A stretch of DNA of 64,000 bases, taken from contig JBAZZV010000002.1 of the NCBI GenBank assembly GCA_041658645.1, positions 35,828 to 99,827 on the forward strand, in the 5' to 3' direction. The stretch comes from Candidatus Margulisiibacteriota bacterium (GTDB lineage Bacteria; Margulisbacteria; WOR-1; O2-12-FULL-45-9; XYB2-FULL-48-7). The position numbers and the translations under genes were made by a program. The notes under the pieces are model-generated. The model saw only the letters and a program-made list of their open reading frames with translations, was not told where the DNA came from and made no database searches. Positions 16,601-29,742 of this stretch are shown here, piece by piece; positions within the stretch are counted from its first letter, which is position 1, and every line of letters begins with the position of its first letter.

Positions 16601-16647
16601 GAATGGATTTTTGGCTGATTGTTTATCTGGGTAATATTGCTTTGCAT
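10654..16647 (-). CDS. Giant uncharacterised membrane-anchored protein 2, about 1,997 aa from ATG 16647. The ORF is open to a TTG at 16749. The N-terminal region is followed by two TM helices at about nt 14030-14170, then a long coiled-coil and proline-rich C-terminal region (PPPPPPPP; PAPAPIIKQPAPVV).
   Basis: Long ORF. The upstream TTG start at 16749 has no RBS (CCTCC precedes it). ATG 16647 (MQSNITQ) is preceded by the sigma-28-like promoter motif at 16654-16686. TM segment: GTTIGLAIAAIAIIATWGAATPLVIIGFAGGMATLGAGVG. Confidence 0.75.
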   Translation of the reverse strand: MQSNITQINNQPKIHSEEIREDINPNAVSEFLLVDDISFKPQESFGINASINNSFKQQASAIQSTVIEAKKDKGNYILAEVDRLFAPSNMTTTSLYTNFYIDNLTAKCNQIFSTLTAPAPDAPPPTPDEPPPPPPPPGDGTEDDHIPATPGGTGSGDPTVDAAYSVDAMIEAKQKEIQDKIDHGGYVDGNINDPTYNSSYAGESPDLQKDYEELMKLWNIMTALATVAEGKRNVWRAMYQMLYDNDLTSRDSDLSLAELVTSMRQTALQKVQLIEMQLREKIEDFNNAVYRAKVAEAKRRAEEESGWWDSFTNSVENFVEGAGDFFEGMFTGDWDQMKAGFNELSGEWFGFKTVFKEFAFDGLGDVFSGGEISKREYDANLKERQANIEREKADFDAARERILEEAILKIIKHIQEEENAGSPVADGKKKLWFGDTSTGWGGINSGNMVQTDIESDGEGGTGAGAYILGSIFAPNSALAYAGANGVNGDNIVAIALSPEAASIGGAFGLNGGGGGDPPPKWDIDRDKILAARMRLVGLNNIERAYYIVKEAIEQAKNDILYIMTGVKVGEGYFKLFDQMLADLQKFELELFSIMINSMVGMVSSHNTMVDAFVEAQKAEAMLTSVYAGTISGGFLLAYPFTALNDYFTGCMLDSKLSRTYAPTQVNMDNVYAILRQMGQDHVGNAQYMVSGGDPNIQASMAMQKAEELGWELVASGLNDGIIINKDDGFQHLNEKGVADIRARLEGLHNLMRAIAMVGLSQIRTVKYILSMWLEKPLMTIDSSHVEAAEETFRSQELGFELKLSGIENKVREHNRLNAWNRELESMAYKAWGTTIGLAIAAIAIIATWGAATPLVIIGFAGGMATLGAGVGSLAYEQGHPVDDKRLPGEDTFYPNKTTGKTVFDKIDRERQEIIDGLNENNHVSAGDGKWGTDVASLAAARDNLTKLRFVEMALLMVYEAMLAEYQNQLANFSGVGLNDPNMQILHNSFSEQHRVKVRTLNDKQDYISDRIQVHNRKREQDKAIERGWVDVAFGALEAASAGGGAATKAGTALHSAFSLAQLGTKLGHIGTNLAFAIYDQHQGLGGLDSQRDLELMLDNVYKNTSNQFDSQITASERDALQQMNRGMLQGVGGGYVAPNAGVYYAMQTKISNLYNIYLALAIVKQAQNRIFAKLGNTSLAQDPLSQAMYDKRDASLNTLKLLFQRVKELAHRMNELNDLTKKMYVTIGTSALSTFMALNQYSDGKLMKPVYNFIKEKVDKLVEKAGGSSNAKPIEVIKDAKVANIFGENWDGKIGYGDIAAILTKVLVSNNMLSFIIEKAYDAANSNKGDNAKQVQPVKYDENTNNSTVNSLNKIENEKASFQQVTAENELSMDELEAARKIAADFNKFVIGLINDSVNALGWGRDMAKSTPPPLPVESNANQPAPSVQPPTAVADTIMPTIDRIPLDQTQIDPEMLKQAQAAASAVVAAAMNGNLPQAASLLNEAAANKPATKNSKGDLDRANEIEKSIAAKSTNINETEKIQESATLSLAEKQMEQSVVKSAGGIPIKDMNTTQLQAAYDKLRREDWTPRSAEINENNVELGQIKLQLADNAKSLKIVGLPDEVKQEIKTNQVNLESRSADLGTRNSQLKNEIKAYEKISGLIAKEFDKKKKPGEKLIIKDFAVKRAKSANEPPRTAQLTDTEQKPPVDKYVPSPAVNNNPSAAPIQPPGQQAPERATQPLLQQIAKLERTVQAKGDNFVRTAAIDLNGVHDIKKLTSSQIKDAVIVKLHEREKLNKEESELTAKINGLQKAKGGATCVEEIKDINQQIAVLRARQEAIKAERKELSRQIGTLVSELENRSAKAELKEINEYRLLIDRAREEAPVQAHVLKTTNAAIADRTPHSQVGRNVDTVVKDAQPIIAPAPAPIIKQPAPVVLAKVEVQAAETNVPAVKRETKEKKAEAPSTNRQVPAVRPENPIAARVFGDSGRGRDEKKKEARPANGFLEVDDLVEAGV

Positions 16648-16653
16648 CTCTAT

Positions 16654-16686
16654 ATATCTATCGTGGTTTGGGGTCAAAAACTTGCA
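16654..16686 (-). promoter_or_regulatory. Sigma-28-like promoter motif: TGCAAGTTTTT-N12-CGATAGATAT, immediately upstream of the ATG (16647) of giant gene 2.
   Basis: Same bipartite motif. It argues for the 16647 start rather than TTG 16749. Confidence 0.5.
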
Positions 16687-16815
16687 TGGAGGGAGGCCTA
16701 TTTTTAGTGGGTATGAAGCCAAAAATATGATATTTTCGAATGCTATCAACCAGGGAGGATGGACGTCAGCTAATTAAGGCCTGTATTAATAAACCACGGA
16801 GGCTAGATTTTTACG

Positions 16816-18627
16816 TCAGCGGTTTAAGCCTAGTTCTCTGGCTCGCTTAAAACACCTTTCAGCTTCGTCTGCTTTTCCTTGCTTTTTAAATACATTCCCC
16901 TTACCATTCCAGGCATCGGCTTCATTAGGATTAATCTCTATGGCTTTATTATAAGCCATAATTGCTTCATCTAATTTCCCCTGGCCGGCAAAAACATCTC
17001 CTTTATGAAACCAGGCACGAGCAAGATTAGGATCAATGTCCAATGCTTTATTAAGAGCTTCAAGTGCTTCAGTTAATTTCCCTTGCTTTTTAAGCACAGC
17101 TCCTTTGTTGCCCCAGGCATTAGCATAATTAGGATTAATTTGTAATGCTCTATTGCAGGAGTCAAGTGCTTCAGACATTTTCCCTTGCTTATAAAGTGCA
17201 ACTCCTTTATTGCTCCAGGCATTAGCATTGTTGGGATTAATTTGCAATGCTTTATTGTAAGCTTCAAGCGCCTCATTTAATTTCCCTTGGTCAGCAAGCA
17301 CAGCACCTTTATTATTCCAGGCACTATCATTATTAGGATTAATTTGCAATGCTTTATTGTAAGCTTCAAGTGCTTCAGACATTTTTCCTTGTTTATAAAG
17401 CACAACTCCTTTACTATTCCAAACAACATCAAGATTAGGATTAATTATTAGGGCTTTATCGTAAGCCATAAGTGCTTCAGTTAATTTACCTTGATTTTCA
17501 AGCACAACTCCCTTATTGCTCCAAATAACCGCATCGTGAGGATTAATTTCCAAAGCCCTGTTGTAAGCCTCAAGCGCTTCAGTTAATTTCCCCTGTCTGG
17601 CAAGTACAGTTCCTTTACCTTGCCAAGCGATCGCATAATTAGGATTAATTTCTAAAGCTTTGTTGTAAGCTCCTAGTGCTTCATTTAAGTTCCCTTGATT
17701 ACGAAGCGCAGCTCCTTTATTGTTCCAGGCGACAGCATAATTTGGATTAATTTGCAGTGCTTTATTATAAGCTTCAAGTGCCTCATTTAATTTCCCTTGG
17801 CCATAAAGCACCTCTCCTTTACCGACCCAAGCAACAGCATAATTGGAATTAATCTCTAGAGCATTATCGTAGGCCGCAAGCGCCCCATCCAATCCCCCTT
17901 GTTTGTAAAGTACATCTCCAATATTCTTCCAGATGACAGGATCACCAGGATTGATTCCCCATGCCCGCTTATAAGCTTCAAGCGCTTTATCTAATTTTCC
18001 TTGTTTTTCAAACACCATTCCTTTACCGTTCCAGGCATTATCATTTTGGGGCCTAATTTGCAATTCCCTATTGTAGGCATCAAGCGCTTCATCTAATCTC
18101 CCTAAAGCATAAAGCACATCTCCCTTCCTTTGCCAGGGAGTAGGACTATCGGGAGAATTAAATTCCGGCCAAGGGGTAACAAAAAAAGGGTAAAGTTCCA
18201 ATGCTGTATTGTAAGCCGCAAGTGCTTCATCTAATCTCCCTAAAGCATGAAGCACATTTCCTTTATGCTCCCAAGCCATTGCATGATTGTCATTCCAGTT
18301 AGGATTATTTTTTAAGGCGTAAATTTTCAGCGCTCTATTATAAGCTTCAAGTGCTTCATCTAATTTCTCTTGTTTCTTAAGTACAACACCTATATTGCTC
18401 CAGATGTCAGGATCATCAGGATTGATCTTTAATGCCTGCTTATAAGCTTCAAGCGCCTCATTAAATTTCCCCTGCTGTGAAAGTGCATTACCTCTATTGT
18501 TCCAGGCATTAATACTGGGAGAGCACCCACTCCCAAGACTTAAAACTCCCAAAGAAAAAACTGCGGCTCGTGCGGCTGTGCGCACCTGTTTTGGCAACAT
18601 TCTTACTCCTAATATTCCTCGTATCAT
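16816..18627 (-). CDS. TPR-repeat lipoprotein (603 aa, about 15 consecutive 34-aa TPR units). It has a signal peptide with a lipobox.
   Basis: N-terminus: MIRGILGVRMLPKQVRTAARAAVFSLGVLSLGSGC (lipobox LGSGC). Repeated W-x-x-KG-x-x-L-x-x-QGK-x-x-EA-x-x-AYNKAL-x-INPN units. A GGAGG RBS lies 9 nt upstream. Confidence 0.85.
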   Translation of the reverse strand: MIRGILGVRMLPKQVRTAARAAVFSLGVLSLGSGCSPSINAWNNRGNALSQQGKFNEALEAYKQALKINPDDPDIWSNIGVVLKKQEKLDEALEAYNRALKIYALKNNPNWNDNHAMAWEHKGNVLHALGRLDEALAAYNTALELYPFFVTPWPEFNSPDSPTPWQRKGDVLYALGRLDEALDAYNRELQIRPQNDNAWNGKGMVFEKQGKLDKALEAYKRAWGINPGDPVIWKNIGDVLYKQGGLDGALAAYDNALEINSNYAVAWVGKGEVLYGQGKLNEALEAYNKALQINPNYAVAWNNKGAALRNQGNLNEALGAYNKALEINPNYAIAWQGKGTVLARQGKLTEALEAYNRALEINPHDAVIWSNKGVVLENQGKLTEALMAYDKALIINPNLDVVWNSKGVVLYKQGKMSEALEAYNKALQINPNNDSAWNNKGAVLADQGKLNEALEAYNKALQINPNNANAWSNKGVALYKQGKMSEALDSCNRALQINPNYANAWGNKGAVLKKQGKLTEALEALNKALDIDPNLARAWFHKGDVFAGQGKLDEAIMAYNKAIEINPNEADAWNGKGNVFKKQGKADEAERCFKRARELGLNR

Positions 18628-18683: not shown

Positions 18684-18725
18684 GGTTTGGAAACCGTCCG
18701 CCTCAGGCGGACAGGTTTCCAAACC
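18684..18725. promoter_or_regulatory. 19-20-bp inverted repeat stem-loop (ggtttggaaaccgtccgcc-tca-ggcggacaggtttccaaacc) in the 338-bp non-coding gap between the gene block and the TPR gene.
   Basis: Read directly. There is one bulge and no U-tract, so it is not a canonical terminator. It abuts the TPR gene promoter. Confidence 0.5.
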
Positions 18726-18965: not shown

Positions 18966-19286
18966 CTATTTTTTTTCATCAACGTTCTGGCCCAAGCTGC
19001 CTGTGGGAGGGACAAAAGGCTTCCCCGTAGTTCCTGGAGCTGCTCCCTTTGCCGGAGGTTGATCTGTCCCCGGAGTCCCGCTTGGCTGTTTTGGAGGATT
19101 GGCCTCTAACGCCGGCAACGGCCCTTCCCCCGGTTTAGGAGCAAAATGACTGCCAATTGCCCCAGCTAACTGTCCCATGCCGGTGCGAATATCTTGTTGT
19201 GCGCCCGTAATATTCTGTCCCCTTGATTGCCCTGCCTGGGCTCTAAAATTCTTTCCGCCGGTATCACCTAAAGTCGTATAAAGCAT
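18966..19286 (-). CDS. Small Gly/Pro-rich hypothetical protein (106 aa).
   Basis: ORF with an AAGGAGATG RBS. It is part of the co-directional tightly spaced block. Composition is low-complexity, so confidence is moderate. Confidence 0.5.
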   Translation of the reverse strand: MLYTTLGDTGGKNFRAQAGQSRGQNITGAQQDIRTGMGQLAGAIGSHFAPKPGEGPLPALEANPPKQPSGTPGTDQPPAKGAAPGTTGKPFVPPTGSLGQNVDEKK

Positions 19287-19311
19287 TTAAAACATCTCCT
19301 TATCTTTAGCA

Positions 19312-19554
19312 TTACCCTTTGGGATTGGAAGGGGTGTATCTGTCTGGTTGGTCAGCCGGTTTTTCATCCGACTGTGTCGGTAGCATCCTGCCTTTCTCTT
19401 TCCCGCTAGCCTTGTTCCCAACATAACCGGCCAGCCGCTGGGCGGCTGGATCATCAAAAAACGCCGTAGTAAGTTGTTTACCAGGACCGGCCGCGGCCGG
19501 TGTCCACGAGCCGCCGATATAAGTATCTGTATTAATTCCTGCCGCGTATCCCAT
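19312..19554 (-). CDS. Small hypothetical protein (80 aa).
   Basis: ORF whose start overlaps the stop of the upstream gene by 1 nt (translational coupling). No recognisable domain. Confidence 0.45.
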   Translation of the reverse strand: MGYAAGINTDTYIGGSWTPAAAGPGKQLTTAFFDDPAAQRLAGYVGNKASGKEKGRMLPTQSDEKPADQPDRYTPSNPKG

Positions 19555-20543
19555 TACTTATTTGCCTCCTGCGGTACCTCTTGTTTAGGTGACTGGGTAA
19601 CGGTGTTGACTACCGGGGGCTGTTGTACCCCATCCGGAGCCGCCATTCCACCATTATTAATCGAGTGCGGCCAGAATCCACCCCTCATCACATAGCCATA
19701 ATCAAAAGTTCCGTATTGTTTTAACAGACTAAGTTGATTGTTATATCTCTCTAATGCATCTTTGCCTCTTTTTCCGGGTTTTCCTAATTCCTGAAGCATT
19801 TCATTGATCACTTCGGTTTTATCTTTGTCTTTACCCGGCTGGATTTTTGCGATCATCCTTGGAATCACAAAGATCGACATCAGCATTGCCCACTTTTGGT
19901 CCTTGGTTAGATTTTTATCCTCCTGAATTTCCTGCATCTTAGCGCTAATTTTATGATCATAATGATTACTGGACTCATTGCCATATTCTGTTTTGATCCA
20001 AATGCAAGCCTGCTCAAGGGTACCAAAAACTGATTTTCCAGCTTCAATTTGGTCAGCTGAACTGACATAGATAAATCCATGAGTATTATGAACATATTGA
20101 TTAAAAGCGTCGCTAAAGTTATCCACTCTGTTGGAGTAGCCGCTGTCCCGCTGGTGATTAAAAGCTATTTGAGTGTTATGCATCCGATTTATTGCTCTGT
20201 CAAGGTCCGTAACAAGACATTCCGCCGGGCCATCTTTCCTGCCAAGGACTACGGCTTGAAAATTATCTTCACTATCAAATTCGAAACCACGTAAACCATT
20301 CTTTTCCATAACTTTGTTCCAATATTTCATGGTAATTATGCCGCCAGGCGCATTTCTTAAGTCCCGATTGACCTGACCTGCTTTTTCCCGACTACAACCA
20401 AGCAAAGCGGCCATTTTTCGATCAGGATCATATATTGATCGTGTTGATTGGTCAGTACCAATCGGAGCAGTAATCTTCTCATTATTTTTAACCGGTACCG
20501 TTGTACCGTTAGCAGCTGACGCTGATGCTGGATTTACTGGCAT
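19554..20543 (-). CDS. Hypothetical protein (329 aa), member of the sigma-28-motif gene block.
   Basis: ORF overlapping the upstream gene by 35 nt. No signal peptide and no known motif. Confidence 0.6.
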   Translation of the reverse strand: MPVNPASASAANGTTVPVKNNEKITAPIGTDQSTRSIYDPDRKMAALLGCSREKAGQVNRDLRNAPGGIITMKYWNKVMEKNGLRGFEFDSEDNFQAVVLGRKDGPAECLVTDLDRAINRMHNTQIAFNHQRDSGYSNRVDNFSDAFNQYVHNTHGFIYVSSADQIEAGKSVFGTLEQACIWIKTEYGNESSNHYDHKISAKMQEIQEDKNLTKDQKWAMLMSIFVIPRMIAKIQPGKDKDKTEVINEMLQELGKPGKRGKDALERYNNQLSLLKQYGTFDYGYVMRGGFWPHSINNGGMAAPDGVQQPPVVNTVTQSPKQEVPQEANK

Positions 20544-21387
20544 TTCTTGTCCCTCCCCTAAAATTCATCGTCATGATCCCTGCGAGATCATGTTTAACAG
20601 CGCCCTCAACCTTATCCAGCCGAGCGGAGATCGAATCGAGATTTTGCGCCTGGCTGTTTAACTGGGAACCGGCGTCGTCGGAAGTAGAGCTGTCGCCGCC
20701 ACCGGCCGGTGCCAGGCTCTTCACCGTTGCTAACATCTGCCCCATCTCGACCGCCTTCCCCTCTACCTGCCCGATCTTCCTGTCCAGCTCACTGGTATCG
20801 AGTCCAAGACGTTCGGCGCCGGCTTTGATCGCTTTTAAGTCGCCAACGATCTGGCCGGTTTTCGCGATCGCTTGTTTCAGCCGGGCGCGCAGTTCGTTCT
20901 GTTTTTGCTCCACCCGGTGCTGAAGATATTTTTCATCCAACCGTTTCTCTTCTTTCTTGTGCTCAACCTCTTCTTTCCCGGCTTTGGTTGACGGCTTGCC
21001 CATCACCGCGTCGTTGATCCGGCGTTGGGCGGCTAAAATATCGTTTAACAGCTGTTCGGTCAAGGTCGACAGATCGCCCCGCGGAGCAAACTCACCGCTT
21101 AAAGCCGAGCTACCCTCACTCTCGTCGGTTTGCGTGGACTGGACCGCTGCCATATAGTTGCCGACCAGCTGGTCAAAGTCATCCTGGTCCATCTTGCCCT
21201 GCGCGTATTTGAGCAGGTCTTCTTCATTCATTTTATTGGGGTCTTTGGTCTCACCGACATAACTGGAAAGGAGGTCCCCTTTGCCCATCTTCAACAGCGC
21301 CTGCCCGGTCCGGCCCAAAAGCCGGAAGTTCGGGTTACTAAGATTCAGCTTAACGCTGACGTCTAATTGGACTGATACATCACCCAT
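20509..21387 (-). CDS. Hypothetical coiled-coil protein (292 aa).
   Basis: ORF preceded by a GGAGAA RBS and the sigma-28-like motif at 21405-21437. The central region is rich in charged heptads (EEVEHKKEEKRLDEKYLQHRVEQKQNELRARLKQ). Confidence 0.65.
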   Translation of the reverse strand: MGDVSVQLDVSVKLNLSNPNFRLLGRTGQALLKMGKGDLLSSYVGETKDPNKMNEEDLLKYAQGKMDQDDFDQLVGNYMAAVQSTQTDESEGSSALSGEFAPRGDLSTLTEQLLNDILAAQRRINDAVMGKPSTKAGKEEVEHKKEEKRLDEKYLQHRVEQKQNELRARLKQAIAKTGQIVGDLKAIKAGAERLGLDTSELDRKIGQVEGKAVEMGQMLATVKSLAPAGGGDSSTSDDAGSQLNSQAQNLDSISARLDKVEGAVKHDLAGIMTMNFRGGTRNASKSSISVSC

Positions 21388-21404
21388 TGGTTGTTCTCCT
21401 ACCC

Positions 21405-21437
21405 ATATTATCGGAACTAACGGCTAAAAACTTGCAT
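21405..21437 (-). promoter_or_regulatory. Sigma-28-like promoter motif: TGCAAGTTTTT-N11-CCGATAATAT.
   Basis: Upstream of the 292-aa coiled-coil gene (start 21387). Confidence 0.55.
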
Positions 21438-23047
21438 TAATTTATCAGTTTCGTCTCACCCAGGATCCTCTGCATCAGCTTCTTGAGCAGGCCTTCTTTT
21501 TTGTCCAGGGCCGGATTCTTCCCATTGGTTTTCGCCTGTTTGACCTCAACTAGTTCCTTCCTGGCCAGGGAGAAGACCCGGGCGTTGGCTTGGTCGCGCA
21601 GGCGGACAAAATCGGCATCGGAAACCGGCAGGTCCAACCGTTTCAGGTTCTTCAGGAGTCCCTTGAGCCTAGTTTCCACCATCTGGTGGGCGGGGCCGGA
21701 AAGGTCATACAGAGTCGCTCTCTCCAACAGGGCTTCATTAAGCATCTCCACCGTCCGCTGTTTGGCCAGCTCCTGGGCTTCGCCTTTAATTTGCTCGTCC
21801 AGCTGGTCGGTAAAGATACCGAGGCGGAAGATGCCGTTTTTCAGCTTCCTGACCTTGAGCTCGGTCGAGATGGTTGTCAGCAGGTCGCCCTTGATCGCTC
21901 TCTGCATGTAGACCGCTCTCAAGCGATTGACCAGCAGTTCTTTCTCGTCTTTTTCGGTATACTCATAGGGGTTCTTCGGCGGCTGGCGCGACATGTCGCC
22001 CGCGTTGGTATTGACGTTATTGCCGGCCAGGCCGCCGGGCGGATCGAAATAGGTCAAGCCCAGATCGTTCTTTTCTTGCTTCCAGACCCGGTTTGTCCAG
22101 CCGGCAACATCCGCCCCCAGGTTTTCGGCCTTAACCGCGATCTTGGCGAGGGTGGAGAGGTCTTTTTTCCCTTCTTTCATGGTGACGCTGATCAGCTCTT
22201 TTTCCAGCTCCTGCATGAGAAAGTCCTTGATCTCCGCTTTGGCTTCTTTGCCGGCAAAGTCCGACGTCCCCTGGACGCCGTCGTGATAGCCGCCGAAATC
22301 CCAATTGCCTAATTTATCATTTTTAAAGACCTTGCTGGTATAAGCCCAAATCCCGATCTTAGCCGAAGCTTCCTCGACATTTCCTTCGGCCAAAGCGACC
22401 GCCACATACCGTTCCTTGATCCCGTCGGTGATCTGTTTTCTGATCTCATTCTTGATCTTAAGCTTGAGCGCAATGAGCTCTTTCTCCGGCACACCCTTTT
22501 CCAGTATTTTGTCCTTTAAGGTCTTTAATTTGGCGGCCAGGCCGGGATCGTTGCTGACCAAACTTTCTAGTAAAAGTGACGAATATTGCTGGACCAACCC
22601 TTTTAACTCACTGCCCGTGGAATAAGTTTTGACCCCCTGATTGCCGCTGTTCTCTCCTTCCTGCCGGCCTTTCTTTCCTTTATATTTTTCCACGCCGGTG
22701 ATCGCGTCTTCCAGCGCGCTTCTCGAGAGGGCGACCGTGTCCTCCCCTGTTTCGTCCTTGCCCAACATTCTGTCATATTCCTTATCCAGCTTGTTCAACA
22801 CCCCTTTGGTGGAAACGCCGGCTGACAGGCCGATGCTGGGCAATTTACCGAGGGTGTCAAGGATCATATCCATCTTGCCCTTTTTGTCGATCCCGCCGCC
22901 GCTCATGACCTTTTCCAAAATCTCTTTGGCCGTCCGCTTTGTTGCGGTCGTCTTGTCAAGGTTGTGCTTGGGAACTACCGCTTGGTTAAGGATCGCTCCT
23001 TCGTTCAGGGCGACGTTGATCTGCTGATTGTTGACCGTTTGGACCAT
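21437..23047 (-). CDS. Hypothetical protein (536 aa), Lys/Glu-rich, partly coiled-coil.
   Basis: Long ORF. Its start overlaps the stop of the 68-aa upstream gene by 1 nt. Confidence 0.65.
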   Translation of the reverse strand: MVQTVNNQQINVALNEGAILNQAVVPKHNLDKTTATKRTAKEILEKVMSGGGIDKKGKMDMILDTLGKLPSIGLSAGVSTKGVLNKLDKEYDRMLGKDETGEDTVALSRSALEDAITGVEKYKGKKGRQEGENSGNQGVKTYSTGSELKGLVQQYSSLLLESLVSNDPGLAAKLKTLKDKILEKGVPEKELIALKLKIKNEIRKQITDGIKERYVAVALAEGNVEEASAKIGIWAYTSKVFKNDKLGNWDFGGYHDGVQGTSDFAGKEAKAEIKDFLMQELEKELISVTMKEGKKDLSTLAKIAVKAENLGADVAGWTNRVWKQEKNDLGLTYFDPPGGLAGNNVNTNAGDMSRQPPKNPYEYTEKDEKELLVNRLRAVYMQRAIKGDLLTTISTELKVRKLKNGIFRLGIFTDQLDEQIKGEAQELAKQRTVEMLNEALLERATLYDLSGPAHQMVETRLKGLLKNLKRLDLPVSDADFVRLRDQANARVFSLARKELVEVKQAKTNGKNPALDKKEGLLKKLMQRILGETKLIN

Positions 23048-23253
23048 TAAATGCCCCCTCTAAGGCCGGATAAGATCATTTCCCGGCTTCTCTTTTCCTT
23101 CAGCAGTGACACCTTTTTCCCGGTCGTTTTAATAAAGGTGTCGACTTTCTGGATATAGCCGTCCAGTATCTTGATCTTTTTATCCAGGTCGGCGACCTTG
23201 ATCGTTTCTTCTTCCTGGAGTAATTCCGGTTTAATTTCGGCCATATAATTCAC
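23047..23253 (-). CDS. Small hypothetical protein (68 aa) ending in GGI.
   Basis: Short ORF translationally coupled on both sides. Weak on its own. Confidence 0.4.
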   Translation of the reverse strand: MNYMAEIKPELLQEEETIKVADLDKKIKILDGYIQKVDTFIKTTGKKVSLLKEKRSREMILSGLRGGI

Positions 23254-23947
23254 ACAATTCCTTCAGGCCCTTTAGATTGCCGACTTGTTCCGCCAGGTTC
23301 TCCCTGATGATTTGCGCCTGCTCCAGCCGGAGTTCGTGAAGATTGAGTTGGGAGACCGGCTTGCCCAGCCGCTGGGCCTGCAGGGAAAGTTGTTTTTCGA
23401 TCTCGGCCATGATCCGGCGCTCTTTTTTGTTCTTGCCGCCGGAAATGGTCAGCAGGACATAATTCCTGGCGTTTTCCTTAAACAGCAGTTTGTTCTGTTT
23501 TTCGAGATCTTCCAGCGCCTGCCGCCGCAAAGCTTCCAGCTCACCCGGCGAAACCCCGGCCAGCGAGAGGAGAAAACGCAAGGCACCCGCTTTGAAAGAG
23601 TAATATTTCGAGACGAGCAGGTTGGGCGATCCCTGCGCCTGCTGGAGCGCTTTGGTAAAAGCGTCTTTCCAGGTTTCCAGGCTGGCCGCGCCAAAGGCCG
23701 GCGCTTTGACGGCTGCCTGCGTATAAACGACCGCCGAGGCGTAGGAATGGGTGAGCCGCGGCAAACCGGTAAACTCTGAACTGCCCGCCTCTTCCGATCC
23801 GGCGACCTGCGCCAGGTATTTTGACCAGTCGGGAGCGGCTTCCGTCTTGGGGGGCGCTTTTTCCGCCGGCTGTTGGTTGGCTTGCGGTTTGCTCTTCAAA
23901 GCGAACAGCGCCGCTTTATTATAAGCGTTCAGATTGCATTCAGTCAT
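23231..23947 (-). CDS. Hypothetical protein (238 aa).
   Basis: ORF overlapping the GT2 gene stop by 8 nt. No known motif. Confidence 0.6.
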   Translation of the reverse strand: MTECNLNAYNKAALFALKSKPQANQQPAEKAPPKTEAAPDWSKYLAQVAGSEEAGSSEFTGLPRLTHSYASAVVYTQAAVKAPAFGAASLETWKDAFTKALQQAQGSPNLLVSKYYSFKAGALRFLLSLAGVSPGELEALRRQALEDLEKQNKLLFKENARNYVLLTISGGKNKKERRIMAEIEKQLSLQAQRLGKPVSQLNLHELRLEQAQIIRENLAEQVGNLKGLKELCELYGRN

Positions 23948-25031
23948 TTTTTTTCTCCAGGATATTTATCACCGACAGGACTTTTTGATCCGGCTGGGCC
24001 TTATAAGCCTGCCGGAAATTATCCAGAGCCTGCTCTTTATTGCCCAATTTCAGCCAGGCCATTCCCAGCAGGTAATAGGGATAATAATCATAAAGCCGGA
24101 CATTAAGGGGAGCGCAGTTGCCCCCTTTAAGCGGGAAATTGGCTATCGGCTTGAGAATTTCTACCGCCTCCAGCGGCTGATCAGCAGCCAGCAGCAGAGT
24201 TGCTTTTACCACTCTCGGCTCCGGATCAAAAGGATCACGCAGACAAGCGTCAGCGGCCACCTTCATGGCCTGGCCTGTTTGCTGGAGAAGGATAAAACAG
24301 CGCGCTAACTGACAGCGCGCTTTCGTCATGATCTCACCCTCCGGTAAAAACTGAATCGCTTGCTGATAGGTTTCAGCCGCCGGTTGAAATAAGTTTTTCC
24401 TGAAATAGGTATTGGCCAGCAGATAGGCGAATTGCGGATCGTCCGGTTTTTTGGCCAGCGCTTGCTCAAACATGGTCACGCTTCTTTCCAGTTTTTGCGC
24501 TTTTTTCTTCTCGTCCAGGGCGGCAAGGCCGCCCCAGTGATAAATATTAAAATCGATCTCTTTACGGGTGGCTTGTTCAGCAGTGTTCAGCTCTTCATTC
24601 ACCGGCCGGACAAAATGGAAACCCCTGCCGTTTCTGAATATTTTATCCCGTTTGTAAAAGACATCGCTTTTAGTTTCGCCTTTTTGGCATTCCCAGATCC
24701 GGCCGAAGATCAGGTCGGCTGGACCGTCCCGGAGAAACTCCCTTAGTTTTTGGAATTCCCGCGGGGTAACGTACTCATCGGCATCGAGCCAGAGGATATA
24801 TTGGCCGGCGGCGTGTTTTAAGCTCTCGTTGCGGGCGGCGGAAAAGTCATTGGTCCAGGGGAATTCGTAAAGCCCGGCCCCGGCCTCCCGGATGATCTCT
24901 TTGGTCCGATCGGTCGAGCCGGTATCAACAACGATAACCTCATCAGCCCCGGCCATGACCGAAGGCAAGGTTTTGAGGAGATTCTCCTCTTCGTTTTTGA
25001 CTATCATGCAGACAGAAAGTAGCTTTGCCAT
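23940..25031 (-). CDS. Family-2 glycosyltransferase with a C-terminal TPR domain (363 aa).
   Basis: N-terminus LSVCMIVKNEEENLLKTLPSV...VIVVDTGSTDRT...WLDADE is a GT-A/GT2 fold with a DxD motif. C-terminal TPR-like helices. The sigma-28-like motif lies at 25039-25070. Confidence 0.8.
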   Translation of the reverse strand: MAKLLSVCMIVKNEEENLLKTLPSVMAGADEVIVVDTGSTDRTKEIIREAGAGLYEFPWTNDFSAARNESLKHAAGQYILWLDADEYVTPREFQKLREFLRDGPADLIFGRIWECQKGETKSDVFYKRDKIFRNGRGFHFVRPVNEELNTAEQATRKEIDFNIYHWGGLAALDEKKKAQKLERSVTMFEQALAKKPDDPQFAYLLANTYFRKNLFQPAAETYQQAIQFLPEGEIMTKARCQLARCFILLQQTGQAMKVAADACLRDPFDPEPRVVKATLLLAADQPLEAVEILKPIANFPLKGGNCAPLNVRLYDYYPYYLLGMAWLKLGNKEQALDNFRQAYKAQPDQKVLSVINILEKKND

Positions 25032-25038
25032 ACCTACT

Positions 25039-25070
25039 AATATATCGGGTTAAATGGACAATAACTTGCA
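25039..25070 (-). promoter_or_regulatory. Sigma-28-like promoter motif: TGCAAGTTATT-N11-CCGATATATT.
   Basis: Upstream of the GT2-TPR gene (start 25031). Confidence 0.55.
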
Positions 25071-25106
25071 TAAAAAGGGGGGGAACAAGGGAAACAAAGG
25101 CCTGGG

Positions 25107-25292
25107 TTACTCGTCTCCTTTATTCCTCTTGCTGGCTGACTTGGCGGCTGTTTCCACATGCTGTTTGAAGAAATTGGCCATCATTGATTGCTGAAACTTA
25201 GCCAAGGCGGCCTTAGGGTCAAGGTTCTTGCCCCAATCGCCATTATTCAACTTATCGATATTCGCGTTAAGCGGTCCTTCGACTGCGGCCAT
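25107..25292 (-). CDS. Small hypothetical protein (61 aa).
   Basis: Short ORF with a strong RBS (GAGAGGTGAG) and its own sigma-28-like motif at 25311-25343. Confidence 0.5.
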   Translation of the reverse strand: MAAVEGPLNANIDKLNNGDWGKNLDPKAALAKFQQSMMANFFKQHVETAAKSASKRNKGDE

Positions 25293-25310
25293 TTAACTCA
25301 CCTCTCTAAC

Positions 25311-25343
25311 TTTAATATCGTAACCAGAAAGAAAATACTTGCG
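25311..25343 (-). promoter_or_regulatory. Sigma-28-like promoter motif: CGCAAGTATTTT-N11-CGATATTAA.
   Basis: Upstream of the 61-aa gene (start 25292). Confidence 0.5.
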
Positions 25344-25346
25344 TGA

Positions 25347-27425
25347 TCACTTTTTATTTTTCTGCCTTAGCGTTTTGAGATTGTCCGACCGGGCGGCGGC
25401 CGTTTTTTCAACCGCGACCTTCTGCTGTTTGGCCTTTTCGGACGCGGCCTTGGCTTCGCCCGTTTTAGCTCTTGCTCTGGCCGCGCTTTTCGCTTCGGCA
25501 ACAGCCGTTTCCCATTTATCATCCCGAACTTTTTCCTTTTCCTTTTTATAATCTTCGGTTTTTCGCTCATGTCCGTTCCGATTAAATTTATTTATTTGAC
25601 TTATCTGTATCGTATAATCAAGATAAGCCATGGCTTTGTTAAGCAAATTACTGTAAGCCCGGAAATTGTAGGAATTATTATAAAGATTAACCGTGCCCAG
25701 GTCCTCGTTATTCTGCCACAAGTGGGCGGTCGAGTTTCGGCTCAGATTGAAATAGTTCAGACCGACAAACAGACCGCGGGCGCTCCCCCTGACATTCGCC
25801 ACCTGAACATTATACCAAAGCAGATCACTGCCGCCTTCAATAACCGGCAAATCGGTCCAGCTGCCCCCCCCGTCCCAACCTTCGACATTCAACATCCAGT
25901 TCTGCAGATCAGCACCGGGTGAACCCAGCCAAGCTCTATCCTGAAAGTTATAGCCTTCAGAAGAGATAGGATACATGGAAATACCTTCTGATTCGCCTAC
26001 TTTTTTAGGATAATAAACGTTATTCTCTTCCAGGTGGCCGTAAAACTCCGCTTTTAGACTGGTTACCACATGTTTTTTATAGTCATCGTCACTTTTAAAT
26101 CCATTCAAATATCCAGATAGACCACTAACGGCATCTTTAACCGATATATTTCCCTGCTTTAAATCGTCTATAATTTTAGTAATATTGGCCGTTTTGATCT
26201 TGAGGCCGCCCAGCGCATTTAAGACCTGCTCCACGCTGGTCGCGCTGGCCAGGGCATTTTTGGTGCCGGCAAAACTTCCGTTAAATACCCAGCTATTATC
26301 AAACTGGGCAAAAACACTGTCAATCCAGGCTTTATACTTAGTAAATGGAGCTTGCGGATCGCCCCAACCGCCGCCTTTGAAGGGATCAAAGTCGCCATTC
26401 CATCCTCTCCCGGCCGAAAGCGCGCCGATCCATTGCCCGGCGGTATCCCACAGTTCATAGTATTCAGTGAAAAGAAATTGATTAAGCTGGCCCGATTCCT
26501 GCCCCCGCCAGTCGGTCGGCTTATTATCCGACCAGGAAGCTATTTTTTTCATTTTATCAGCGTCAGTCAGCTCGTCAAGGGCACCGTAGGAGAGGGCATT
26601 CTGCGTTACACCATACCCAAAATCATAGCTCTTAGCTTGCGGCCGGTGACTGCCAAAAAGGTCAGTCATGGCGTAAGCGATCCGTCTTTTTGATTCGATC
26701 AGCCCGAGTATCCAGGCGATCCCCTGCTCCGGTCCTGGATTATTACTATTTTGTTTAAAGTTTTCATATACAAATTCATAATAGTTGCGGTTGACATTCA
26801 AACCGGCTTTTTTTTCCTTAAAAAGGGTTGAATAGTCCGGCACATAGCCAAGCTCCGCTCCGGCCGTCCCGGAACCGGTGCGTTTATAGACATAGCTCAT
26901 ATCGTCAAATTCATACGCGTCGATCGCTTCATCTATACTTCCGAGACTGCCATCGGTATACTGGACCTGATTAAATTCATCGTATATCTTGGGGGATTTG
27001 GCATTGCCCACATAATTAAAGTGCTGGAAATCCGAGGCGCCAAAATAATAATCAAGACCGGGAGTTTGTTTTTCTTTATTTATTGTTTTCTCCCCCCAAA
27101 ATTCCAAAGGAACACCGGGCTCTAACTGATCGTTTATCCCGTTGCCATTCGAGTCAGACATAGAAAAACGCAGCTTCATGTGATGCGTGGCGCCGGGTTC
27201 ATCAAGCGTCCCGGCAAGATCCTCACCGCTGATCTTGGAAATTATTCTCTGCGGGGGTAAAAACTTCATCATTTCCTGGAGAAAGTTTACGCGGGAAAAA
27301 AGCCAGCGGCGGCCGCGCACGGTCGTCTCGTTGCCCCAGACCCCTTCTTCGCCAAACGTCCCGTCAACGGGAACGTTGGGGATATAAGGAGCCGGCGCGG
27401 GGGTCATTACATCAAAATCGGTCAT
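25347..27425 (-). CDS. Large hypothetical protein (692 aa) with a Lys/Ala/Glu-rich basic C-terminal tail.
   Basis: Long ORF with an AAAGGCAGG RBS. No signal peptide and no recognisable catalytic motif. The C-terminal about 90 aa are highly charged (KEKEKVRDDKWETAVAEAKSAARARAKTGEAKAASEKAKQQK). Confidence 0.7.
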   Translation of the reverse strand: MTDFDVMTPAPAPYIPNVPVDGTFGEEGVWGNETTVRGRRWLFSRVNFLQEMMKFLPPQRIISKISGEDLAGTLDEPGATHHMKLRFSMSDSNGNGINDQLEPGVPLEFWGEKTINKEKQTPGLDYYFGASDFQHFNYVGNAKSPKIYDEFNQVQYTDGSLGSIDEAIDAYEFDDMSYVYKRTGSGTAGAELGYVPDYSTLFKEKKAGLNVNRNYYEFVYENFKQNSNNPGPEQGIAWILGLIESKRRIAYAMTDLFGSHRPQAKSYDFGYGVTQNALSYGALDELTDADKMKKIASWSDNKPTDWRGQESGQLNQFLFTEYYELWDTAGQWIGALSAGRGWNGDFDPFKGGGWGDPQAPFTKYKAWIDSVFAQFDNSWVFNGSFAGTKNALASATSVEQVLNALGGLKIKTANITKIIDDLKQGNISVKDAVSGLSGYLNGFKSDDDYKKHVVTSLKAEFYGHLEENNVYYPKKVGESEGISMYPISSEGYNFQDRAWLGSPGADLQNWMLNVEGWDGGGSWTDLPVIEGGSDLLWYNVQVANVRGSARGLFVGLNYFNLSRNSTAHLWQNNEDLGTVNLYNNSYNFRAYSNLLNKAMAYLDYTIQISQINKFNRNGHERKTEDYKKEKEKVRDDKWETAVAEAKSAARARAKTGEAKAASEKAKQQKVAVEKTAAARSDNLKTLRQKNKK

Positions 27426-27447
27426 TTTTCAACCTGCCTTTTCTGCT

Positions 27448-27801
27448 TTAACCGCCGGCCATCATTTTGGCGGCCGTTTCGTCATAACTTAGCCGCTTCT
27501 GGAACAAACCCATGGTCATATTGTACTGGTTTTCCAATTGGGAGGTCGCGTAGTTGATCGCCATCAGGCCGCCGGAAGAGGTCTTGTCAACTTCGCCCAG
27601 GCCAAAGACGCTTAAGTCGACAATTTTAATTTCAGAATTTGACGTCTCCAGCGTGATCTTATTCAGTTTTTTGAAAATGATCCGCAGGAACTCTTTGGTA
27701 TCAGCGGCAGAGACCTGGCCGCCCGAGCGCACGCTGTTCTGGGCGGCAAAAACCGACCCGGCTGATTGATTGTTGACCGATTTATCCATTTTTCCCTCCA
27801 T
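27448..27801 (-). CDS. Small protein, paralog B of a pair (117 aa; the start is possibly at 27789). It ends in ...KMMAGG.
   Basis: It shares the core K-[ST]-[AS]-GGL-[FM]-A-[VI]-x-x-x-x-S-x-x-E-[RN]-Q with the upstream 98-aa gene. A GGAGGG RBS is present. The hairpin at 27829-27850 lies immediately upstream. Confidence 0.6.
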   Translation of the reverse strand: MEGKMDKSVNNQSAGSVFAAQNSVRSGGQVSAADTKEFLRIIFKKLNKITLETSNSEIKIVDLSVFGLGEVDKTSSGGLMAINYATSQLENQYNMTMGLFQKRLSYDETAAKMMAGG

Positions 27802-27828
27802 TTAATCCCGACGAACGAAATTAAAGAG

Positions 27829-27850
27829 AGGGGGGAGAATTCTCCCCCCT
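27829..27850 (-). terminator. Intrinsic terminator/attenuator hairpin (9-bp GC stem, AATT loop) followed on the coding strand by CTCTTTAATTT, located between the two paralogous small-protein genes.
   Basis: aggggggag-aatt-ctcccccct with a T-rich 3' flank on the minus strand. Confidence 0.65.
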
Positions 27851-27859
27851 ATAAACCTT

Positions 27860-28156
27860 TTAACCACCCTGGGTTCTCTTATAATCGACGGCCGCTCCCT
27901 TTGTAAGCTCAATTCCCTTTTTCGGAGCCGCGGCTGAAATTGTTTGGGCTCTTTCGTTAAGACTAACTTCCTGGGTAACCGCGAACAATCCACCGGCGGA
28001 TTTCACGTCAACGTCATCCAGCTTCATTTGCGTCAGATGAACCTCACCCCCGTCAACCGATGATTTAGCAATCTGCACGGTGAGCTCGTTTAATTGATTC
28101 CCAAGCTCGGTTAACGCCGTATAAGATTTCTGCAATCCTTCAAGTTCTGTTGCCAT
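27860..28156 (-). CDS. Small protein, paralog A of the pair (98 aa). It ends in ...KRTQGG and is the candidate major structural subunit.
   Basis: AGGAGGTGAAAAGGT RBS. It is followed by an 8-9 bp GC hairpin plus a T-rich tract, which is attenuator-like. It is paralogous to the downstream 117-aa protein. Confidence 0.65.
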   Translation of the reverse strand: MATELEGLQKSYTALTELGNQLNELTVQIAKSSVDGGEVHLTQMKLDDVDVKSAGGLFAVTQEVSLNERAQTISAAAPKKGIELTKGAAVDYKRTQGG

Positions 28157-28189
28157 ACCTTTTCACCTCCTTTTTGCCATACTGTCGAA

Positions 28190-28405
28190 TCAAACCAGCT
28201 GGTTGATCGAACTGCCTGAACCAGCCGGCGGAATTGCCTCTTTGGAAACCGGGCCCGCATCCGTAACTTCCGCGATCTTGAGATCGAGACCGCTCTCTTC
28301 AAATCTCGCCTTAACGAGGCCCTTTAGATCGGAGAGGAGATCAGTAATTTGCCCTGAATTCGCCTGACTATTAAGATTTAAATTACCGATCGTTGAATTG
28401 CCCAT
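28190..28405 (-). CDS. Small hypothetical protein (71 aa).
   Basis: GGGAGCGG RBS. The sigma-28-like motif lies at 28420-28452 directly upstream. Confidence 0.5.
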   Translation of the reverse strand: MGNSTIGNLNLNSQANSGQITDLLSDLKGLVKARFEESGLDLKIAEVTDAGPVSKEAIPPAGSGSSINQLV

Positions 28406-28419
28406 TGTCCGCTCCCACT

Positions 28420-28452
28420 ATACTTATCGTACTCCGAAAGACAAAACTTGCA
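28420..28452 (-). promoter_or_regulatory. Sigma-28-like promoter motif: TGCAAGTTTT-N13-CGATAAGTAT.
   Basis: Upstream of the 71-aa gene and the paralog A gene. Confidence 0.55.
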
Positions 28453-28734
28453 TTAATCTTCTTTCAGCTTTTTCTCGACTTGAGAGATCTTTTTCAGTAT
28501 CTCGTCGAGGCCTTCATCTTGCGCGGCCAAGCCGGTAAAAAAATCAGCGAACAGTTTTTTGTCGGACATGGCGCCGGCAAAGGTCTCCGTCCCGCGGGTC
28601 ACCTGGTCGGCCCGGAAATTCTCGATCAGATTGCGCACAAAAGAGAGGGAAGCCGGTTGATTGCTGGGGGCGTTATCCAGCGTCTTAGGGCTCATTTGCC
28701 TGAACATAGAAGCTGAAATGCCGTCTAATAACAT
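28453..28734 (-). CDS. Small hypothetical protein (93 aa).
   Basis: ORF 12 nt downstream of the OMP gene with a GGAAAGGA RBS. Confidence 0.5.
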   Translation of the reverse strand: MLLDGISASMFRQMSPKTLDNAPSNQPASLSFVRNLIENFRADQVTRGTETFAGAMSDKKLFADFFTGLAAQDEGLDEILKKISQVEKKLKED

Positions 28735-28746
28735 GTTATCCTTTCC

Positions 28747-29694
28747 TTATTCCGGTAAAACCGAGGCCGTTTTCGGCTCGTTTTGGGCGATCGCTTTCCC
28801 AACAACTGTTGGGTTGGATTCGGTTTTTGGCGTGATGGAAACCGACCAGTAATGGACCGGCTCGGCTTTGTCAAGATAAGCGTAATCGACGCCAAACCCG
28901 CCGAGATTGATCCCCAGCCCGGCGGTCGAGCAATCGAGGCCGCGGCCGGCGCGGATCGCCAGCCCCCGGACCGGCTGCCATTCACAGCCAAGCTCTGTCC
29001 CCTCTACCACCCAGGTCACGCTGTTGCCGAAGATCTTGCCGGAAGCGCCAAGCAAGACCGCGCTTTTCCGCTCTTCGACGGTGGTCAGGTTGGGGATGTC
29101 TTTTAAGCCATCCCCGCTGAAGAAGTTCTGCAACGAGAGGCCGAGCGAGAGGTCGCTGTTCGGCTTGAAAACGGTCGCCAGGTCGAGGTCGATGTTCGAG
29201 CCGCCATCCTGGGACAACCCTTTGGCAGTCCCGAGCTTGCGGCTGGAAAACTTGACGTTGGCGCCAACAGAAAGAACACCCATATTGTCGGAGACCTTGA
29301 TCTCTTTATTTAACTCCCTGGCCAGGCTGACGTACAAGGTCTGGGTGGAATATCTGGTCAGGGCCTCGCCATCCCAGCCGATCAGGCTGGCCGCGCTGAT
29401 GATCGGGTCGGTCGAGCCGACATAGCCGATACCGATAGCGCCGAGCGGAGTGTTCTCGACCCCGCCGATCAGCGTATATTCGCGACCCTCCGATAAGCGG
29501 GTAGAAACGAGGACCGCCTCGCTCTGGACCTGGTAGATGCCGGCCGGGTTAATGAAGATGGCATTGGCATCGTCCGCCAGGCCGGCGAAAGCGCCCCCCA
29601 TCCCCATCGGACGGGCTCCCAGATTTTCCTGGGCAAGAGCGGGCACGGCTAACATTATGATGATGGCCAGCAGGGCAAAAGTTTGTTTGCTCAT
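28747..29694 (-). CDS. Outer-membrane beta-barrel protein, PorV/PorQ/FadL-like (315 aa), with a signal peptide.
   Basis: Signal peptide MSKQTFALLAIIIMLAVPALAQ. The N-terminal motif ARPMGMGGAFAGLADDANAIFINPAG is characteristic of the PorV/FadL-like barrel family. Amphipathic beta-strands alternate to the C-terminus. Confidence 0.7.
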   Translation of the reverse strand: MSKQTFALLAIIIMLAVPALAQENLGARPMGMGGAFAGLADDANAIFINPAGIYQVQSEAVLVSTRLSEGREYTLIGGVENTPLGAIGIGYVGSTDPIISAASLIGWDGEALTRYSTQTLYVSLARELNKEIKVSDNMGVLSVGANVKFSSRKLGTAKGLSQDGGSNIDLDLATVFKPNSDLSLGLSLQNFFSGDGLKDIPNLTTVEERKSAVLLGASGKIFGNSVTWVVEGTELGCEWQPVRGLAIRAGRGLDCSTAGLGINLGGFGVDYAYLDKAEPVHYWSVSITPKTESNPTVVGKAIAQNEPKTASVLPE

Positions 29695-29703
29695 TCCACT
29701 TGT

Positions 29704-29733
29704 TTAATCGGGGCGAAGAGGGGAAAACTTGCG
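29704..29733 (-). promoter_or_regulatory. Sigma-28 (FliA/SigD)-like promoter motif upstream of the OMP gene: CGCAAGTTTT-N12-CCCGATTAA.
   Basis: One of seven instances of a bipartite motif with fixed spacing. It lies 10-35 nt upstream of the ATG. Confidence 0.5.
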
Positions 29734-29742
29734 CGGGTTCTG

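Follow-up and report, generated by a model that had tools for sequence, protein, structure and literature searches.

What might be built by a block of tightly packed genes when hardly any of its proteins is recognized by the available family libraries? This question is raised by a stretch of 64,000 nucleotides (nt) from a Candidatus Margulisiibacteriota bacterium (contig JBAZZV010000002.1), here called the window, in which 15 consecutive open reading frames (ORFs) lie tightly packed on the minus strand between positions 18966 and 29694. An earlier reading made from the letters alone, the sequence-only reading, had proposed that this block is a candidate novel surface or assembly system. All the ORFs were found with the sizes, order and common strand that it had described, although it had counted 14 genes and its own list of sizes sums to 15. 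The measured spacing also agreed with the tight packing that it had noted, as neighboring genes overlap by 1, 1, 8, 23 and 35 nt or are separated by gaps of 12-75 nt. One of these overlaps may be smaller than listed. The gene g8 is listed from a GTG at 23253, but its orthologs begin at a position equivalent to the ATG at 23244 (MAEIKPE), three codons downstream, and, therefore, this ATG is probably the true start, giving a protein of 65 amino acids (aa) and an upstream overlap of 14 nt rather than 23 nt. The genes of the block are real because orthologs in other genomes, at 25-90% identity, keep the same gene order. The features of the locus are listed in Table 1, and the related loci to which they were compared are given L numbers.

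The block was found to be conserved as a unit in Margulisiibacteriota. Contigs that carry the close relatives of g5 contain the same genes in the same order, with residue conservation in every family. The loci of more distant g5 and g9 relatives encode four small proteins, a large one, and proteins of ~250 aa, ~65 aa and ~530 aa, again in the same order, and each of these distant clusters is accompanied by a protein of 1800-3400 aa. BLAST confirmed the orthology of g4, g5, g7, g8, g9, the glycosyltransferase (GT2-TPR) and the giant protein encoded downstream of the block, and the synteny of g3-g4-g5...g7-g8-g9 plus the giant gene is kept in lineages at 25-39% identity. The cluster adjoins an NTP-transferase gene in the window, L001, L003, L004 and the Saganbacteria locus L006, and rpiB is found upstream of that gene where the contigs reach far enough. 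In the window, this upstream flank consists of housekeeping genes (a GlmU-like NTP-transferase, rpiB, pdxJ and ispF), and a further 10 kb of the contig beyond the window contains housekeeping genes only. The module also reaches past position 18966 to the giant gene, which has the same promoter as the block and adjoins the cluster in other lineages. A check of synteny across related genomes, as the sequence-only reading had suggested, thus showed the block to be co-conserved in WOR-1 and Saganbacteria lineages.

A promoter signature is also common to these genes. The sigma-28-like motif GCAAGTTTT-N12-(A/C)CGATA(A/T) occurs in six copies in the 64 kb. The pattern CAAGTWNT-N10-14-CGATWW gave five matches in the window compared to 0.07 expected, and each of these lies on the minus strand in an intergenic region of the block. 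A position weight matrix (PWM) was built from 24 sites, with the consensus a-T-GCAAGTTTT-N12-(A/C)CGATA(A/T)(A/T), and it found six sites in the window compared to 0-1 in shuffled sequence. Each of the six lies on the coding strand and directly precedes a block gene or the giant gene. The sigma-28-type promoters described earlier were, therefore, borne out by five exact matches to the pattern and by a sixth site before the giant gene. The motif was found at equivalent, co-directional positions in L001, L003, L004, L006, L008 and L010, including those before the giant genes, and it recurs in the syntenic clusters of at least 10 other Margulisiibacteriota lineages. Twenty-one metagenome loci have at least two co-directional sites. 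The common promoter signature and the co-conserved synteny across Margulisiibacteriota support the idea that the genes form one unit. As judged from these sequence comparisons, the block and the giant gene (~16 genes) are one module that is phylum-restricted, co-regulated and co-conserved.

The motif was called sigma-28-type because its -10 element and part of its -35 element are those of sigma-28/FliA/SigD promoters. The -10 element is CGATAA/T and the -35 element contains AAGTTT, and the sigma-28/FliA promoter consensus in E. coli is TAAAGTTT-N11-GCCGATAA. Compared to flagellar class III promoters, the -10 element is exactly of the sigma-28 type and the -35 element is partly alike, but the spacer in the block is 1 nt longer. 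One alternative sigma factor, putatively of the sigma-28 type, most likely reads the approximately six near-identical promoters. At P1, P4 and P6, the -10 element ends 11-14 nt before the start codon with no Shine-Dalgarno sequence in between. Because of this short distance, the mRNAs of the outer-membrane protein (OMP), the glycosyltransferase and the giant protein may be leaderless or nearly so.

Copies of the motif were also seen away from the cluster. In the Saganbacteria locus L006 (2563-2764), the motif lies before a lone 48-aa ORF between purF and glnA and, therefore, the regulon appears to have scattered small members. A family of 64-68-aa proteins (…ITLEGVIYKTSGNILF…LAQS.LLE) was found directly behind the motif on the independent contigs L016, L023, L049 and L102, and a second small family (…KGPDLKALG.KS..E…) was found directly behind it in L017, L025 and L123. 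Both families are probably further members of the regulon outside the cluster. Three metagenome contigs, L064, L078 and L080, have the motif before genes of the RhuM family (Pfam Virulence_RhuM, E=1e-56). There it is probably an unrelated sequence, conserved in front of a mobile gene, that fits by chance.

The signals around g3 suggest which protein might be the main product. The 98-aa and 117-aa proteins, g3 and g4, had been called paralogs, and this was upheld by BLASTP (E=5e-5) and by a family-versus-family hhalign comparison (probability 91.5%, E=8.6e-7). Their common plan is a helix, a G.G.vD..sA.GLFAIT segment and a second helix. The C-terminal Gly-Gly, which had been described as a shared feature, did not hold, as it is not conserved in the orthologs. 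The idea of a ubiquitin-like C-terminal Gly-Gly was ruled out for the same reason. The Shine-Dalgarno region of g3, AAAGGAGGTGAAAAGGTATG, is perfect and nearly invariant in nucleotides across seven lineages, whereas the g3 proteins of those lineages are merely 13-49% identical. A stem-loop directly follows the g3 stop codon in all seven lineages, with sequences that differ and a position that is kept. These observations agree with the layout described in the sequence-only reading, in which a strongly expressed small subunit is followed by a hairpin and then by a minor paralog. Because the Shine-Dalgarno region is nearly invariant and the stem-loop is positionally kept, we take them as marks of a gene whose product is very abundant and from which transcription continues into g4-g5 to a limited extent.

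Operons for major subunits of the pilA, fliC and gvpA type share several of these properties with g3, namely an own strong promoter (predicted here), an optimal ribosome-binding site, a stem-loop that limits read-through to minor-subunit or accessory genes, and quick divergence of the major subunit. Unlike the subunits of pili, flagella and gas vesicles, g3 carries neither a class III signal peptide nor a hydrophobic helix at its N-terminus, and signatures of GvpA, flagellin or Flp are absent. The block also differs from these systems and from S-layers in having no assembly ATPase, secretin, usher or peptidase. When the window was compared to L003, g3 was the fastest-diverging block protein (44% identity), followed by the OMP (64%), g5 (65%) and g4 (68%). 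A housekeeping neighbor was 74% identical, and g1, g2 and g7-g9 were 83-90% identical. Since these identities fall below and above the housekeeping level, the proteins can be divided in the pattern expected of a fast-evolving outside (g3, the OMP, g5 and g4) and a conserved internal core (g1, g2 and g7-g9).

The block had been described as uncharacterized, and the Pfam, NCBIfam, PHROGs and PADLOC libraries indeed recognized only the GT2-TPR glycosyltransferase and, weakly, the OMP as PorV/PorQ-like. PADLOC returned 0 families for nine block proteins, and, thus, no match to anti-phage defense. No signature of type IV or tad pili, gas vesicles, encapsulins, chaperone-usher systems or injectisomes was matched in the block by Pfam or NCBIfam, in agreement with the earlier statement that no similarity to pilins, flagellins or gas-vesicle proteins is evident. 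Walker A and HExxH motifs were absent from the unknown block proteins, and both these motif scans and the library scans agree with the claim that the block has no NTPase or peptidase signature. The only transmembrane (TM)-like segment in the block proteins was the signal peptide of the OMP, which was, as had been stated, the single signal peptide found. Searches of PDB with sequence profiles of g5, g9 and g3/g4 gave no match. The sequence searches, therefore, assigned the block to no known system. Because no structural protein fits a known family or fold, the module would, by elimination, stand outside every known kind of system. Its predicted likeness to known systems is in its regulatory logic, with sigma-28-type promoters and attenuation behind the major subunit, and in one GmaR-like enzyme. 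Cysteine is rare in the unknown block proteins (6 of 2781 residues, or 0.22%, compared to 1.19% in the housekeeping proteins of the window) and in the giant protein (3 of 1997 residues).

The large proteins of the module have few relatives. The window's g5 has an identical counterpart, a hypothetical protein, in a Candidatus Margulisiibacteriota metagenome-assembled genome, and only three close relatives, all from Margulisbacteria/WOR-1, were found among 5.8 billion clusters. When 1.8 billion representatives were searched exhaustively by HMMER with the profile of g5, 15 proteins were found at E<=0.001. Among those whose source was looked up, four carry a name, in each case of the WOR-1/Saganbacteria type, and the others are metagenome sequences. 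Word-indexed homolog searches found only 4-6 relatives, and a scan of GTDB found one locus only. The g5 family has an N-terminal nETTxRGxRW..RVNFLxEMMKF motif, an ESRRR..M.E.FG core and a Lys/Arg-rich C-terminal tail, so that the basic tail noted earlier for the 692-aa protein is both present and conserved. Its members are 500-1283 aa in length, with highly variable inserts between the conserved parts. Relatives of g9 in Saganbacteria and Rifle WOR-1 lineages are 31-39% identical and have a conserved C-terminal domain of ~170 aa. The giant protein has no Pfam domain and is homologous to the giants beside the clusters in L006, L008, L010 and L060. Its TM-like segments at residues 830-873 and 1299-1317 fit the giant membrane protein that had been described downstream of the block.

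The glycosyltransferase provided the clearest link to known proteins. Its catalytic domain matched Pfam Glycos_transf_2 (E=8e-28; GT2, GT-A, DAD motif), and its TPR repeats were placed by Pfam at residues 173-348. The closest solved relative is GmaR (PDB 22ao, E=7e-29), the flagellin O-linked N-acetylglucosamine transferase of Listeria monocytogenes, and the next are SunS-type peptide S-glycosyltransferases. The block enzyme and GmaR have the same order of glycosyltransferase domain then TPR repeats, and the GT2/GT-A domain is aligned over residues 3-191 with the DAD motif kept and with strong identity over approximately the first 100 residues. However, GmaR has 637 residues and the block enzyme has 363 and ends after the TPR repeats. 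The linker and anti-repressor domains of GmaR are missing from the block enzyme, and there is no flagellin nearby. GmaR is bifunctional, its TPR domain has been proposed to bind the protein substrate, and enzymes of the GmaR/SunS type act in the cytoplasm, where they modify proteins or peptides that are then exported independently of Sec (PMC9638930).

The GT2-TPR gene occurs in the window, in L003 and L008 and in three metagenomic clusters. The OMP gene is present in the window, L003 and L094, in the last case behind the same promoter motif, and is absent from L001, L004, L006, L008 and L010. Because both genes are missing from several orthologous clusters, they are taken from these comparisons to be accessory. 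The OMP had been described as a PorV/FadL-like barrel. It has a signal peptide and a match to NCBIfam PorV_fam (residues 25-191, E=5e-11), but the score of 42.7 bits is below the family cutoff of 90, and Pfam Toluene_X was matched at E=0.27. Like PorV/PorQ of the type IX secretion system (T9SS), the OMP carries an N-terminal GMGGA...INPAG motif. In contrast to the T9SS, the block proteins lack cargo signal peptides and C-terminal sorting domains, and the OMP is missing from most clusters. Elsewhere in the window, an 806-aa protein (34349-36769, plus strand) has Glucodextran_B, Big_13, FlgD_ig and weak CHU_C (T9SS C-terminal sorting) domains and is a conserved neighbor in WOR-1 DG_54_3 (L001 1-2648). 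Together with the PorV-like OMP, this protein hints at T9SS-like sorting in the phylum.

We propose, with a probability of about 0.4, that the module builds a structural assembly that is glycosylated, does not depend on Sec and is probably exposed at the surface, and that g3 is its major subunit. The proposal draws on the co-regulation, co-conservation, paralogy, expression signals and glycosyltransferase relationship found in the sequence comparisons, from which we infer its structural role, its place at the surface, its way of export and the parts played by the subunits. The subunits would leave the cytoplasm without Sec signal peptides and reach the cell surface. The abundant major subunit would be g3, with g4 as its minor paralog and g5 as a large protein with variable, exposed inserts, while g1, g2 and g7-g9 would be conserved core or assembly factors. 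The 1997-aa protein would act as a membrane-embedded anchor or scaffold, and the PorV-like barrel would be an outer-membrane component in some lineages. Where it is present, the GmaR-like GT2-TPR enzyme would glycosylate the subunit or subunits in the cytoplasm before assembly. The original proposal of a novel surface or assembly system is, thus, partly supported, as the unit is real and matched no known system, whereas its structural and surface nature is a possible reading of indirect signs.

Several points weigh against this proposal. Export components (an NTPase, secretin, pilin peptidase or chaperone-usher) were not found in or beside the clusters examined. Since no NTPase or known secretion component was found there, export is the weak point of the proposal, and an intracellular assembly is possible. 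An AlphaFold2 model of g5 made from a four-sequence alignment was unusable, with a predicted local distance difference test (pLDDT) score of 38.5, and an AlphaFold model of g9 reached a pLDDT of 55 and matched nothing specific; the two models, therefore, give no structural support for a filament. The depletion of cysteine and the fast evolution are evidence of an indirect kind. Also, no sigma-factor gene was found in ~970 kb of related loci by phmmer with E. coli FliA among the queries, and the layout of the motif also recalls promoters of extracytoplasmic function (ECF) sigma factors such as sigma-W, so that the factor may be of the ECF type.

If nothing is exported, a sigma-28-like factor could instead drive cytoplasmic scaffold, cytoskeletal or nucleoid-associated proteins, making the block an intracellular structural or developmental module. 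The absence of export machinery from the clusters and of signal peptides from the proteins would fit this, as would the predicted coiled-coil and helical proteins, the Lys/Arg-rich C-terminal tail conserved on g5, and the absence of flagellar genes near the clusters or behind the sampled copies of the motif. In Chlamydiae, which have no flagella, late genes including the histone-like hctB are under the control of sigma-28. The two regulons are alike in having non-flagellar late or structural genes, and the basic, Lys-rich tail recalls histone-like late proteins, but there is no sequence similarity, and the block regulon has an OMP, a membrane giant and a glycosyltransferase. We know of no developmental cycle in Margulisiibacteriota. 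An outer-membrane barrel in the regulon of three lineages, a giant partner that is membrane-embedded as judged by its TM-like segments, and the five-fold cysteine depletion speak against a purely internal function, and a glycosyltransferase of the GmaR/SunS type suggests exported substrates. In addition, g3 diverges much faster than housekeeping proteins, which would be unusual for an internal scaffold. We regard an intracellular module as unlikely, though it deserves serious attention. Another possible explanation, which we consider quite unlikely, is a set of secreted effectors with small chaperones that is delivered by a secretion system encoded elsewhere, such as a flagellar-type or injectisome type III secretion system (T3SS), a type IV secretion system (T4SS) or another. 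A small gene before a large one (g4 then g5, g8 then g9), N-termini rich in Asn, Gln, Ser and Thr without a hydrophobic core, the basic C-terminal tail of g5, the near absence of cysteine and the central hydrophobic hairpin in the giant protein are all features that effector sets could have. However, effector repertoires usually turn over, whereas the order and content of the block are kept phylum-wide down to 25-39% identity. The expression signals of g3 fit a stoichiometrically dominant building block, and no secretion-system gene was seen in the ~970 kb of related loci. Classical T3SS chaperones are acidic, in contrast to g6 and g8, which are basic, and to g4, which is near neutral (pI 7.9).

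The promoter type and the GmaR-like GT2-TPR enzyme could also point to an extremely diverged late (class III) flagellar module that encodes an anti-sigma factor, chaperones, hook-associated, cap and filament proteins and a flagellin glycosyltransferase. Like a flagellar class III regulon, the block has several short units in which small proteins alternate with proteins of 300-700 aa, cysteine-poor and without signal peptides, and a protein glycosyltransferase among its genes. Flagellins and FlgV have been reported in some Margulisbacteria (PMC7018530; PMC11607428). A literature search found no account of flagella, pili or surface structures in WOR-1 or Saganbacteria. A motif scan of the metagenome collection returned 120 loci, from which 87 ORFs directly downstream were taken. 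None of them has a flagellar Pfam domain, and most have no domain at all; eight are recognizable cluster proteins, among them g9 five times, a giant protein and a PorV-like OMP. The 21 loci with multiple sites contain 114 ORFs. Among the 25 most frequent of the 57 Pfam families matched there, all were glycosyltransferases (GT2-TPR three times, Glyco_trans_1_2+DUF3880 twice) or flanking housekeeping families, none was a flagellar, pilus or secretion family, and glycosyltransferases were the only recurrent recognizable cluster components. Searches by phmmer with 26 E. coli flagellar proteins, among them FliA, FliC, FliD, FlgK, FlgL and FlgE, had no hits in the ~970 kb of related loci, and against the block they gave noise only. 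At E<=1, no block protein matched Flagellin_N/C, Flg_bb_rod, FliD_N/C or another flagellar family in Pfam or NCBIfam, and no small block protein matched the FlgM, FlgN, FliS or FliT families, so that nothing in the block resembles flagellin, the hook-associated proteins, FliD or these four. The g9 model gave no specific flagellin or FliD match, and no basal-body or flagellar export genes were seen in the 64 kb of the window, the further 10 kb of the 253-kb contig or the related loci. From the flagellar-free downstream ORFs, the multi-site loci and the phmmer searches, the regulon is, therefore, non-flagellar as far as sampled. The idea that the promoter marks canonical flagellar genes was likewise ruled out by the 87 downstream ORFs. 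The axial proteins of flagella belong to the best-conserved proteins of bacteria, which also counts against such divergence, and we consider a diverged flagellar module improbable. Many small ORFans beside a very long helical protein with hydrophobic segments, which resembles a tape measure, could suggest the capsid, tail and tape-measure genes of a prophage or mobile element. The single PHROG match among the block proteins was weak (E=0.0015), and the function of the matched family is not known. Among 2.9 million viral contigs, none was found to carry a relative of g5 or g9, and there is no integrase, terminase or portal gene. The GC content (45-55% in the block and 56% in the upstream housekeeping flank) gives no clear sign of foreign insertion, the same NTP-transferase neighbor is found in the window and the four loci named above, and a host-type promoter is common to all units. 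A phage origin is, thus, exceedingly improbable.

Table 1. Genes, promoter sites and stem-loop of the module, in the order of transcription (positions in the window)
Feature	Position	Strand	Remarks
P1 (GCAAGTTTT-N12-CCGATTA), upstream of OMP gene	29698-29735	-	pattern and PWM; position occupied in L003 too
OMP, 315 aa	28747-29694	-	signal peptide; PorV/PorQ-like
g1, 93 aa, acidic, conserved	28453-28734	-	87% identity to L003
P2, upstream of g2-g3	28417-28454	-	conserved in L001, L003, L004, L008
g2, 71 aa, Ser/Gly/Asn-rich	28190-28405	-	
g3, 98 aa, candidate major subunit	27860-28156	-	perfect Shine-Dalgarno, fast divergence
GC-rich stem-loop with T-rich tail, directly 3' of g3 stop codon	27829-27850	-	terminator or attenuator
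g4, 117 aa, g3 paralog	27448-27801	-	directly upstream of g5 in all clusters
g5, 692 aa, aromatic/Asn/Gly-rich	25347-27425	-	conserved motifs, variable inserts
P3, upstream of g6	25308-25345	-	pattern and PWM
g6, 61 aa, basic	25107-25292	-	
P4, upstream of glycosyltransferase gene	25035-25072	-	pattern and PWM
GT2-TPR glycosyltransferase, 363 aa, GmaR-like	23940-25031	-	Pfam, PDB match
g7, 238 aa, basic	23231-23947	-	conserved across phylum
g8, 65-68 aa, Lys-rich, helical	23047-23253	-	orthologs, BLAST
g9, 536 aa, all-alpha (predicted)	21437-23047	-	best-conserved cluster protein
P5, upstream of g10	21401-21438	-	pattern and PWM
g10, 292 aa, predicted coiled-coil/low-complexity, fast-evolving	20509-21387	-	
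g11, 329 aa	19554-20543	-	ortholog in L004, 28% identity
g12, 80 aa, Gly/Ala/Pro-rich	19312-19554	-	
g13, 106 aa, Gly/Pro-rich, probably disordered	18966-19286	-	
P6 (TGCAAGTTTTT-N11-ACGATAG), upstream of giant gene	16651-16688	-	PWM; equivalent site before L006, L010 giant genes
Giant protein, 1997 aa, start ATG 16647 (MQSNITQINNQ)	10654-16647	-	same promoter, conserved cluster neighbor

Other genes of the window were noted as well. The stretch from g13 to the giant gene encodes a 603-aa TPR lipoprotein (16816-18627, minus strand), in which there are 16 TPR repeats. The sequence-only reading had named it downstream of the block, and its lipobox (LGSGC) is present, but both the promoter motif and conservation in other clusters are missing. 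In the 338-nt gap upstream of it, there is a hairpin at 18684-18725 with a perfect 12-bp inverted repeat (GGTTTGGAAACC...GGTTTCCAAACC). An Rfam scan of the window from 10 to 31 kb found no RNA family. A second giant ORF (61-8514, plus strand) encodes at least 2817 aa, possibly cut by the edge of the window, with two TM-like segments, four cysteines and no Pfam domain. It is unrelated to the 1997-aa giant by BLASTP, and the 60 nt available before it show no copy of the promoter motif. A radical-SAM/SPASM protein (8662-9561, plus strand) and a class I methyltransferase (9601-10587, minus strand) are encoded between the two giant genes and may be a peptide or protein modification pair. Farther along the window are a polysaccharide/O-antigen-type cluster at 36766-46477 (Bac_transf, a Wzy_C-TPR fusion and DUF5693) with secA next to it (46459-48960), and a 525-aa ORF at 52526-54103 with no Pfam match.

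The proposed structural assembly can be put in a wider form, which we hold to be possible but doubtful. Margulisiibacteriota, a phylum sibling to Cyanobacteria, would own a new glycosylated surface appendage or coat made of ~100-aa subunits (g3/g4), g5, g9 and the giant protein. It would be Sec-independent, use no known secretion or pilus machinery, and be controlled by a sigma-28-family factor uncoupled from flagella. If true, an uncultured phylum adjacent to Cyanobacteria would have bacterial surface or structural machinery of a new class, defined by about a dozen protein families that have no relatives elsewhere in sets of 5.8 to 15 billion sequences. Besides those of Chlamydiae and actinomycetes, it would also be a clear example of a sigma-28-type regulon that contains no flagellar genes. 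With the promoter motif, the whole regulon could be mapped simply in any genome of Margulisiibacteriota, and g3 is probably a dominant antigen or marker protein by which these organisms could be studied in proteomics and imaging.

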